Shown: in pieces, positions 57,718 through 59,453 of the stretch | How positions within the stretch are numbered: the stretch's first letter is position 1 | Layout: every line of letters starts with the position of its first letter | The notes under the pieces: generated by a model | Seen by the model: the letters and a program-made list of their open reading frames with translations, nothing else | Databases searched by the model: none | Told to the model about the DNA's origin: nothing | Assembly: GCF_051903065.1 (NCBI RefSeq) | Contig: NZ_CP178438.1 | Strand: one strand, 5' to 3' | Origin: Escherichia coli | Lineage (GTDB): Bacteria > Pseudomonadota > Gammaproteobacteria > Enterobacterales > Enterobacteriaceae | DNA length: 64,000 nucleotides | Position numbers and translations under genes: made by a program

Positions 57718-58173
57718 ATGAATTTTAAAAAAACAATAATCATTTCGGTAGGTTTGATATTTATTTCATTCTCTTTTGTGGCAAAGTGCTCTCAACTCAA
57801 AAATTTGAATAATTACTCAGTGATGCTTTGTGGAAAAGTGTCAAATAATATCCTGGATGATATTGGTGGTTATAAAGAAAGAGATAAAAAATCCGAAATG
57901 GTAGATTTACTTATATTAATTAGTAATGACGAGCCTAACGGTGTTTCTGAGACCAAAGTGATTTCTAATGGTAAAATATATTTTAAGGGGGAAAGTACGA
58001 TGAACTTGGATGCCTCATTCATTATGACAATAAATGGTGGAGTTCATACTGACACTGTCACTTATATATCAAAGAAGAATAAAATTATCGGGGGCTACTT
58101 TTATAATAATGAGAGTAAAACTGATAAGCTTAAGGAAGTATATATCTCAAACACAGGAACTGTATATCGGTAA
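57718..58173 (+). CDS. Putative cognate immunity protein (secreted or lipoprotein)
   Basis: 151-aa ORF 4 bp after the effector stop; signal peptide MNFKKTIIISVGLIFISFSFVAKC; low GC; stop codon lies inside the IS1 terminal repeat. Confidence 0.55.
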   Translation: MNFKKTIIISVGLIFISFSFVAKCSQLKNLNNYSVMLCGKVSNNILDDIGGYKERDKKSEMVDLLILISNDEPNGVSETKVISNGKIYFKGESTMNLDASFIMTINGGVHTDTVTYISKKNKIIGGYFYNNESKTDKLKEVYISNTGTVYR

Positions 58174-58183
58174 TGACTCCAAC

Positions 58184-58687
58184 TTATTGATAGTGTTTTA
58201 TGTTCAGATAATGCCCGATGACTTTGTCATGCAGCTCCACCGATTTTGAGAACGACAGCGACTTCCGTCCCAGCCGTGCCAGGTGCTGCCTCAGATTCAG
58301 GTTATGCCGCTCAATTCGCTGCGTATATCGCTTGCTGATTACGTGCAGCTTTCCCTTCAGGCGGGATTCATACAGCGGCCAGCCATCCGTCATCCATATC
58401 ACCACGTCAAAGGGTGACAGCAGGCTCATAAGACGCCCCAGCGTCGCCATAGTGCGTTCACCGAATACGTGCGCAACAACCGTCTTCCGGAGCCTGTCAT
58501 ACGCGTAAAACAGCCAGCGCTGGCGCGATTTAGCCCCGACATAGCCCCACTGTTCGTCCATTTCCGCGCAGACGATGACGTCACTGCCCGGCTGTATGCG
58601 CGAGGTTACCGACTGCGGCCTGAGTTTTTTAAGTGACGTAAAATCGTGTTGAGGCCAACGCCCATAATGCGGGCTGTTGCCCGGCAT
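58184..58687 (-). CDS. insB: IS1 transposase InsB
   Basis: 167-aa [28 protein letters not shown]... Confidence 0.9.
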
Positions 58688-58881
58688 CCAACGCCATTCA
58701 TGGCCATATCAATGATTTTCTGGTGCGTACCGGGTTGAGAAGCGGTGTAAGTGAACTGCAGTTGCCATGTTTTACGGCAGTGAGAGCAGAGATAGCGCTG
58801 ATGTCCGGCGGTGCTTTTGCCGTTACGCACCACCCCGTCAGTAGCTGAACAGGAGGGACAGCTGATAGAAACAGAAGCCAC
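58606..58881 (-). CDS. insA: IS1 protein InsA
   Basis: 91-aa ORF (GTG start) with zinc-finger CPSC...CSHC. Confidence 0.9.
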
Positions 58882-58936
58882 TGGAGCACCTCAAAAACAC
58901 CATCATACACTAAATCAGTAAGTTGGCAGCATCACC

Positions 58937-59453
58937 CATATTAGGAATCTGGGAAAGAACAAGGTGCGCCGCTTTTTTTGTACTAAATAATTCGCATTTT
59001 AGTCACGGCAGAGAAGAAATCCGTCTTCATATTGTTTGCGATGTTCCTGATGAACTTATTGATTTCACGTTTGAATGGAAAGGGCTGAAGAAATTATGCG
59101 TGGCAGTCTCCTTTCGGTCCATAATAGCAGAACAAAAGAAAGAGCCAGAAATGACGGTCAGATATTATATCAGTTCTGCTGATTTAACCGCAGAGAAGTT
59201 CGCCACAGCAATCCGAAACCACTGGCACGTGGAGAATAAGCTGCACTGGCGTCTGGACGTGGTAATGAATGAAGACGACTGCAAAATAAGAAGAGGAAAT
59301 GCAGCAGAATTATTTTCAGGGATACGGCACATTGCTATTAATATTTTGACGAATGATAAGGTATTCAAGGCAGGGTTAAGACGTAAGATGCGAAAAGCAG
59401 CCATGGACAGAAACTACCTGGCGTCAGTCCTTGCGGGGAGAAGGCTTTCGTAA
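58937..59453 (+). pseudogene. ISAs1-family (H-repeat-associated) transposase, 3' fragment truncated by IS1
   Basis: C-terminal transposase-like sequence ([35 protein letters not shown]); N-terminal two thirds absent. Confidence 0.7.

Follow-up and report, generated by a model that had tools for sequence, protein, structure and literature searches.

An IS1-Associated Deletion beside an H-rpt Remnant in a vgrG Island of Escherichia coli

Introduction

What kind of event leaves an intact insertion sequence with unrelated DNA at its two ends, and what was lost when it took place? The question is raised by a copy of IS1 that lies between a small gene in the immunity position of a type VI secretion system (T6SS) effector module and a fragment of an H-rpt transposase. 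We analyzed this copy within a stretch of 64,000 nucleotides of Escherichia coli DNA, referred to here as the window, which matches E. coli 23CRST027 and 23CRST031 (the sister genomes), both from human faeces in Ecuador, at approximately 100% chromosomal identity. An initial reading of the same sequence (the original prediction) had held that the copy was not a simple insertion, and we follow its claims to the results that bear on them.

Results and Discussion

The vgrG island and its retained module

The locus is a variable vgrG island between yncG and the genes pptA-yddH-nhoA-yddE-narV. Its position next to pptA is that of RhsE/ydcC in E. coli K-12 (RhsE-ydcC-pptA). The gene order in the window is PAAR, vgrG, effector, immunity-position gene, IS1, H-rpt remnant, and pptA (59552–59779, plus strand), with which the core genome resumes on the right. 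Judging by open reading frames and PGAP annotation, the combination of PAAR and vgrG with an effector and a small gene in the immunity position identifies the retained part as a T6SS vgrG-linked module. Its spike gene is vgrG (53334–55481, plus strand, 715 aa); both 23CRST027 and the comparison genome ECNB21-M121 (see below) carry the annotation “type VI secretion system Vgr family protein.”

The effector gene (55632–57713, plus strand) is intact and encodes 693 aa according to PGAP, which labels the product “M23 family metallopeptidase.” The Pfam match to Peptidase_M23 is N-terminal and weak (23.5 bits, below the cut-off of 28.7). The C-terminal part (GDGARFKGRGTIHLTGRENYRNY) presumably resembles the catalytic motif of a GH19/lysozyme-like muramidase, and the effector may be a two-domain cell-wall toxin.

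An intact IS1 with no target-site duplication

The window holds a single IS1, located at 58169–58936 on the minus strand. This IS1A-like copy is intact and 768 bp long, and both of its canonical 23-nt ends are exact (GGTAATGACTCCAACTTATTGAT at 58169 and, as the reverse complement, GGTGATGCTGCCAACTTACTGAT ending at 58936). The products of insA (58881–58606) and insB' (58687–58184) have Pfam matches to Zn_ribbon_InsA (1e-21), HTH_Tnp_IS1 (5e-31), and DDE_Tnp_IS1 (2e-78), and the A6C programmed −1 frameshift site, AAAAAAC, is found at IS1 position 307. A length of about 768 bp with imperfect terminal inverted repeats, together with the insA and insB' frames and the A6C site, places the element in the IS1 family. 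The IS1 deposited for 23CRST027 is 767 bp long and annotated as frameshifted, having CCC where the intact window copy has CCCC (58433–58436), so either the window is not base for base the 23CRST027 assembly or there is a homopolymer error in the assembly.

The 9 bp on the left of IS1 (58160–58168) read CTGTATATC, and the 9 bp on the right (58937–58945) read CATATTAGG. The original prediction had noted that these flanks differ, and with exact coordinates this stands: the two ends share no identical repeat of 8–9 bp and, with other lengths and offsets included, no direct repeat of at least 6 nt within 25 nt of both ends. The sole word common to both flanks is the 5-mer AGGAA, at unrelated offsets. 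There is consequently no target-site duplication of any plausible length, and the lack of a 9-bp (8–11 bp) duplication excludes a simple insertion without excluding membership of the IS1 family. A second IS1 with complementary flanks was sought throughout the window and none was found.

Independent copies of IS1 are also present in or beside the ydcC H-rpt of other E. coli lineages (L004, L005, and L006, each at 4001–4768). Two of these are simple insertions with 9-bp duplications (aaagccttt and cttaacatg), and one, common to many ST540-like genomes, has no duplication, the DNA between the yncG side and ydcC being gone. The locus looks like a recurrent target of IS1.

A 6,019-bp block is replaced by IS1

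Comparison with a relative free of IS1 at this site, which the original prediction had proposed, was made with E. coli ECNB21-M121 (NZ_CP083585.1). Window positions 42816–58168 align to this genome gap-free at 99.84% identity (24 mismatches), as do positions 58937–64000 at 99.98% (1 mismatch), with both flanks in native order and orientation. The two matching blocks are 6,019 bp apart in ECNB21-M121 (record 2423629–2429647), and in the window IS1 stands between them. An insertion sequence thus occupies the place of a block that is contiguous in a colinear, IS-free relative, as expected of an adjacent deletion. The PptA, YddH, NhoA, and YddE proteins carry the same accessions in ECNB21-M121 and 23CRST027, which supports a close kinship of the two; ECNB21-M121 is nonetheless a contemporary relative and not the true ancestor, so the lost segment could have differed in detail from the one described here.

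The left end point of the deletion lies after position 58168, up to which the window is colinear with ECNB21-M121, and the latter then reads on as atataaatattg. It cuts off the final 53 nt of the immunity gene and with them the last 17 codons. At the right end point, 12 bp remain between the break and the left repeat of the internally deleted H-rpt. These 12 bp (catattaggaat, 58937–58948), the first nine of which form the right flank of IS1, are native DNA found also in ECNB21-M121, where they are preceded by aacttaaagttgc. Immediately ahead of the right end point stands a C, which is also the last base of IS1, leaving an ambiguity of one base.

According to the ECNB21-M121 annotation and Pfam, the missing block comprises, in order, the 3' end of the immunity gene (53 nt), a spacer of about 270 bp, an H-rpt copy with an 825-nt open reading frame, a PAAR gene, a vgrG without its C-terminus (vgrG'), a Peptidase_C39 fragment of 111 aa that is annotated as the effector Cpe1 in another genome, an open reading frame of 96 aa, a gene annotated as peptidase M35, and an open reading frame of 143 aa. 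This cargo was a vgrG effector module, the second at the locus, and had partly decayed before it was lost. The original prediction was therefore right that DNA between the immunity gene and the H-rpt had been removed (6,019 bp relative to ECNB21-M121), and its suspicion of further lost cargo is borne out by the second PAAR-vgrG'-C39-M35 module and the additional H-rpt copy. Its view that this is no simple insertion is likewise upheld, the missing duplication reflecting a deletion at IS1.

The full tandem arrangement is carried by four complete genomes. Among complete genomes, 31 contain the initial 319 bp of the lost segment; all 31 were listed, and neither 23CRST027 nor 23CRST031 is among them; nor is 71% or more of the 6-kb segment present in any one place in either sister genome. 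Tested with these two probes, the lost DNA has been deleted from the sister genomes and not moved or inverted. Both IS1 junctions are restricted to 23CRST027 and 23CRST031 among 5,426 complete E. coli genomes. As an alternative ancestor we considered the arrangement of E. coli A30 (immunity gene, H-rpt, pptA; L001), and rejected it because its H-rpt has a different internal deletion and window positions 58937–59016 are unmatched there.

Mismatches to ECNB21-M121 are unevenly spread over the 15.3 kb to the left of IS1, 17 of the 24 falling within 187 bp in the 3' part of vgrG (54991–55177). This clustering suggests a small recombination patch in the C-terminal region of VgrG. Gene conversion from the second vgrG' of ECNB21-M121 was examined as the source of the patch and discarded, as that gene provides no better match.

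The H-rpt remnant is older than the IS1 event

H-rpt, or ISEc1, elements of the ISAs1 family are linked to Rhs and vgrG islands. The full-length reference ISEc1 (L002 4484–5774) is 1,291 bp long, encodes a 378-aa transposase with the domains DDE_Tnp_1_assoc and DDE_Tnp_1, and ends in the terminal repeats CAGGGAAAGAT and, in reverse complement, CAGGGCAAGAT. The remnant in the window (58949–59463, plus strand) is 515 bp long and, lacking the length and the two domains of the reference, is not a full-length ISAs1 element. It does retain both terminal repeats. ISAs1-family repeats (CAGGGNAAGAT) are found at its two ends, the left one reading CTGGGAAAGAA at 58949 and the right one ATCTTGCCCTG at 59453–59463, the reverse complement of which is CAGGGCAAGAT.

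Alignment to ISEc1 and other H-rpt copies identifies positions 58949–59001 (plus strand) as a left end with the terminal inverted repeat CTGGGAAAGA, corresponding to H-rpt left ends from CTGGGAAAGAAC to CTTTTTTTGTACTAAATAATTCGCATTTTA. The alignment breaks off at 59001/59002, resumes at ISEc1 position 5312/5313, and then continues to the right repeat at 59463. The 3' part (59002–59463, plus strand) is 98.3% identical to ISEc1 (L002 5312–5774) and contains transposase codons 229–378. The internal deletion of 777 bp took the start codon and codons 1–228, so that 150 of 378 residues (about 40%) are still encoded, and the Pfam DDE_Tnp_1 match covers only profile positions 139–200, in the C-terminal part. 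In 23CRST027 PGAP annotates a pseudogene, “ISAs1 family transposase, incomplete, missing N-terminus,” at 58992–59453 on the plus strand. The remnant is a defective ISEc1-type derivative, with no usable transposase and not an autonomous member of the family.

The original prediction placed IS1 directly against the transposase fragment and attributed the truncation to the IS1 event. The first point fails, since the 12 bp at 58937–58948 and an intact H-rpt left repeat intervene. As to the second, it is correct that only a C-terminal portion of the transposase (residues 229–378) survives, but with both repeats present around an internal deletion, the IS1 event is not the cause. The distribution of the remnant says the same. 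The 94-bp stretch 58937–59030 takes in the internal junction as well as the left end and the 12 bp outside it. Of 5,426 complete E. coli genomes, 219 contain this stretch in full, the matches listed being all 100% identical and including the O145:H28 lineage, and none of the four of these genomes that we inspected has IS1 at the H-rpt left end. Given that the remnant and the 12 bp occur in 219 genomes, that IS1 is absent from the four inspected, and that the IS1 junction occurs only in the two 23CRST genomes, the damage to H-rpt must be older than IS1 and independent of it. Truncation of H-rpt by IS1 is therefore ruled out, and there is no missing 5' part to look for elsewhere in the genome, as the original prediction had suggested doing. 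The “partial ISAs1 transposase” beside pptA is instead a widespread, fixed, and internally deleted H-rpt.

At least two internally deleted forms of H-rpt with both terminal repeats occur at this locus (window 58949–59463 and L001 4484–5460), namely the 515-bp form of the 219 genomes and a form with an 825-nt open reading frame that lacks about 312 bp. Both are MITE-like ISEc1 derivatives. In E. coli A30 a sequence resembling an H-rpt left end (L001 563–616; 85% identical to window 58948–59001) lies just upstream of an N-terminally truncated vgrG, which suggests that H-rpt ends may mark other breakpoints of the island too.

A truncated gene in the immunity position

The original prediction overlooked that the deletion also truncates the immunity-position gene (57718–58173, plus strand). 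Of its native codons 150 are left; the open reading frame then runs through a hybrid CGG (Arg) codon and ends at a TAA that belongs to the IS1 terminal repeat. In L001, L002, and ECNB21-M121 the gene is intact (WP_001009642.1), with 504 nt encoding 167 aa. The annotation of a 151-aa “hypothetical protein” can therefore be corrected to a 3'-truncated immunity gene fused to the end of IS1.

The immunity family is tiny, with nine clusters from E. coli, Pseudocitrobacter, and Salmonella, and the four full-length members are all 167–168 aa long. An alignment places the conserved C-terminal sequence HINIESVSNDKCLDKFK outside the window protein, and the lost tail, HI[ND][IL]ES..[ND]DKCLDKFK, is conserved in these four members, cysteine included. 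The effector module is rare, the 3' end of the immunity gene being found in 31 of the 5,426 complete genomes. A Pfam search with the immunity-position protein matched no family, and immunity to the effector is the role that its position, and only its position, would suggest. In a low-confidence AlphaFold model (pLDDT 57), the lost part corresponds to the end of the last strand and the terminal helix. With its C-terminus lost, the immunity protein may be impaired while the effector is intact; removal of the conserved 17 residues may weaken or abolish its function.

Origin of the deletion

We regard it as nearly certain that a real IS1-associated deletion took place. At least 36 places in the sister genomes match IS1, indicating that the element is abundant in this lineage, and repeats of this kind are the usual cause of misjoined reads. 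An assembly artefact in which reads were joined wrongly across IS1 copies is nevertheless very improbable, as the same junctions appear in two separately deposited complete genomes as well as in the window, the flanks come from a single chromosomal locus and are ordered and oriented as expected, and the missing segment turns up nowhere else in the 23CRST027 or 23CRST031 assemblies with either of the probes described above.

Insertion of IS1 followed by adjacent deletion, one of the two routes named in the original prediction, is the one that we favor, with a probability of roughly 0.6. The ancestor would have resembled ECNB21-M121, with the order PAAR, vgrG, M23-type effector, immunity gene (167 aa), H-rpt, PAAR, vgrG', C39/Cpe1 fragment, small open reading frame, M35 peptidase, small open reading frame, internally deleted H-rpt, and pptA. 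IS1 would first have inserted at either end point, with a 9-bp duplication as the result, and one of its ends would then have attacked the other site on the same chromosome by intramolecular replicative transposition (“adjacent deletion”). This step would have removed the intervening DNA along with one copy of the duplication, leaving an intact IS1 with unrelated flanks. IS1-mediated adjacent deletions are reportedly the subject of the classical gal-operon work of Reif and Saedler in 1975, and Turlan and Chandler are said to have dealt with intramolecular replicative transposition of IS1 in 1995. Such deletions, a classical activity of IS1, share with the window an intact IS1, no duplication, the loss of a contiguous adjacent block, and one flank that is presumably original and another that is new. 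Nothing mechanistically different is visible in the window.

We searched for an intermediate, IS1 at only one of the two sites with its duplication, by way of either IS1 junction. None was present among the 5,426 complete E. coli genomes, which include only two of this clone. Metagenome contigs gave 0 matches for two patterns, one being an IS1 end followed by 0–20 nt and the continuation of the immunity gene, the other an IS1 end that comes 0–20 nt after native DNA from the left side of the right end point.

The other route named there is possible, though distinctly less probable. It begins with independent insertions of two like-oriented IS1 copies, one creating the duplication CTGTATATC in the immunity gene and the other creating the duplication CATATTAGG at a site 12 bp from the H-rpt remnant, on its upstream side; RecA-dependent recombination between them would delete the 6 kb and leave one hybrid IS1. 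The end product would be identical, a complete IS1 between unrelated flanks where a contiguous block is missing, and the abundance of IS1 in the sister genomes and its repeated strikes at this locus in other lineages both speak for it. Recombination between two IS copies is, along with adjacent deletion, a recognized and common cause of missing duplications (PMC11708052). It is the costlier account, however, since two independent, like-oriented insertions no more than 6 kb apart must be followed by recombination, where adjacent deletion requires one insertion and one transposition, and neither single insertion was found in the complete genomes or the metagenome contigs. The failure to find an intermediate in any collection searched could also be read in favor of a one-step event, in which an incoming IS1 joined its ends to two targets 6 kb apart, so that insertion and deletion occurred together and no duplication was ever made. 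For IS5 and IS481, duplication-free movements of this kind, accompanied by large rearrangements, have been put forward (PMC11708052). We consider this improbable here, given that absent intermediates are weak evidence when only two genomes of the clone are in the collection, that all 14 of 14 IS-plus-deletion events in long-term evolution data were two-step adjacent deletions (PMC11708052), and that nothing in the sequence calls for it. If a one-step movement had taken place, it would belong to a class proposed only recently and for other IS families.

Two less ordinary readings are unlikely, one being that a one-step, duplication-free movement of IS1 made the deletion directly, the other that the truncation crippled immunity while the peptidoglycan-targeting effector stayed intact. 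Were immunity crippled, the clone would have to silence its T6SS or suffer intoxication by siblings.

In ECNB21-M121 the 5-nt word CATAT occurs at both deletion end points (tatat/CATATaaat and gttgc/CATATtagg; L011 at about 14648 and 8630, corresponding to window 58168 and 58937–58941). This probably reflects a preference of IS1 for AT-rich targets, or chance, and none of the deletion models requires it.

Relation to known systems

All parts of the locus fit kinds already known: an IS1-associated deletion, a defective H-rpt/ISEc1 derivative, and IS-driven erosion of the T6SS. In the Lenski lines, adjacent and IS-by-IS deletions involving IS150 resemble the window in that a duplication-free insertion sequence marks the deletion, with losses there of tens of bp up to tens of kb (PMC11708052). 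The two-step route was proved in those lines by earlier time points, whereas the window comes without a time series. The H-rpt of the window resembles the H-rpt/ISEc1 of the K-12 locus (H-rpt is mentioned in PMC3032704) in lying beside pptA, in having the same terminal repeats, and in the 98% identity of its 3' 462 bp to ISEc1; unlike ISEc1, it is a 515-bp, internally deleted form fixed in 219 genomes. Erosion of the E. coli T6SS through gene loss driven by mobile elements or recombination has likewise been traced by junction sequences (PMC10711316). There the core tss cluster was hit, by a 21-kb deletion and by ISEc12 in tssM, whereas the present case concerns an accessory vgrG effector island in one small clone. 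The locus illustrates how expansion of IS1 in a single commensal or clinical E. coli clone erodes accessory T6SS toxin cargo, and the significance of the finding beyond annotation is small.

Elsewhere in the window, an IS200/IS605 tnpA with an internal stop adjoins an intact insQ (TnpB), and ydbD is annotated as frameshifted in a sister genome (window about 28771–30493 and 772–3077). The window further contains the toxin genes hokB, hicAB, and ortT.
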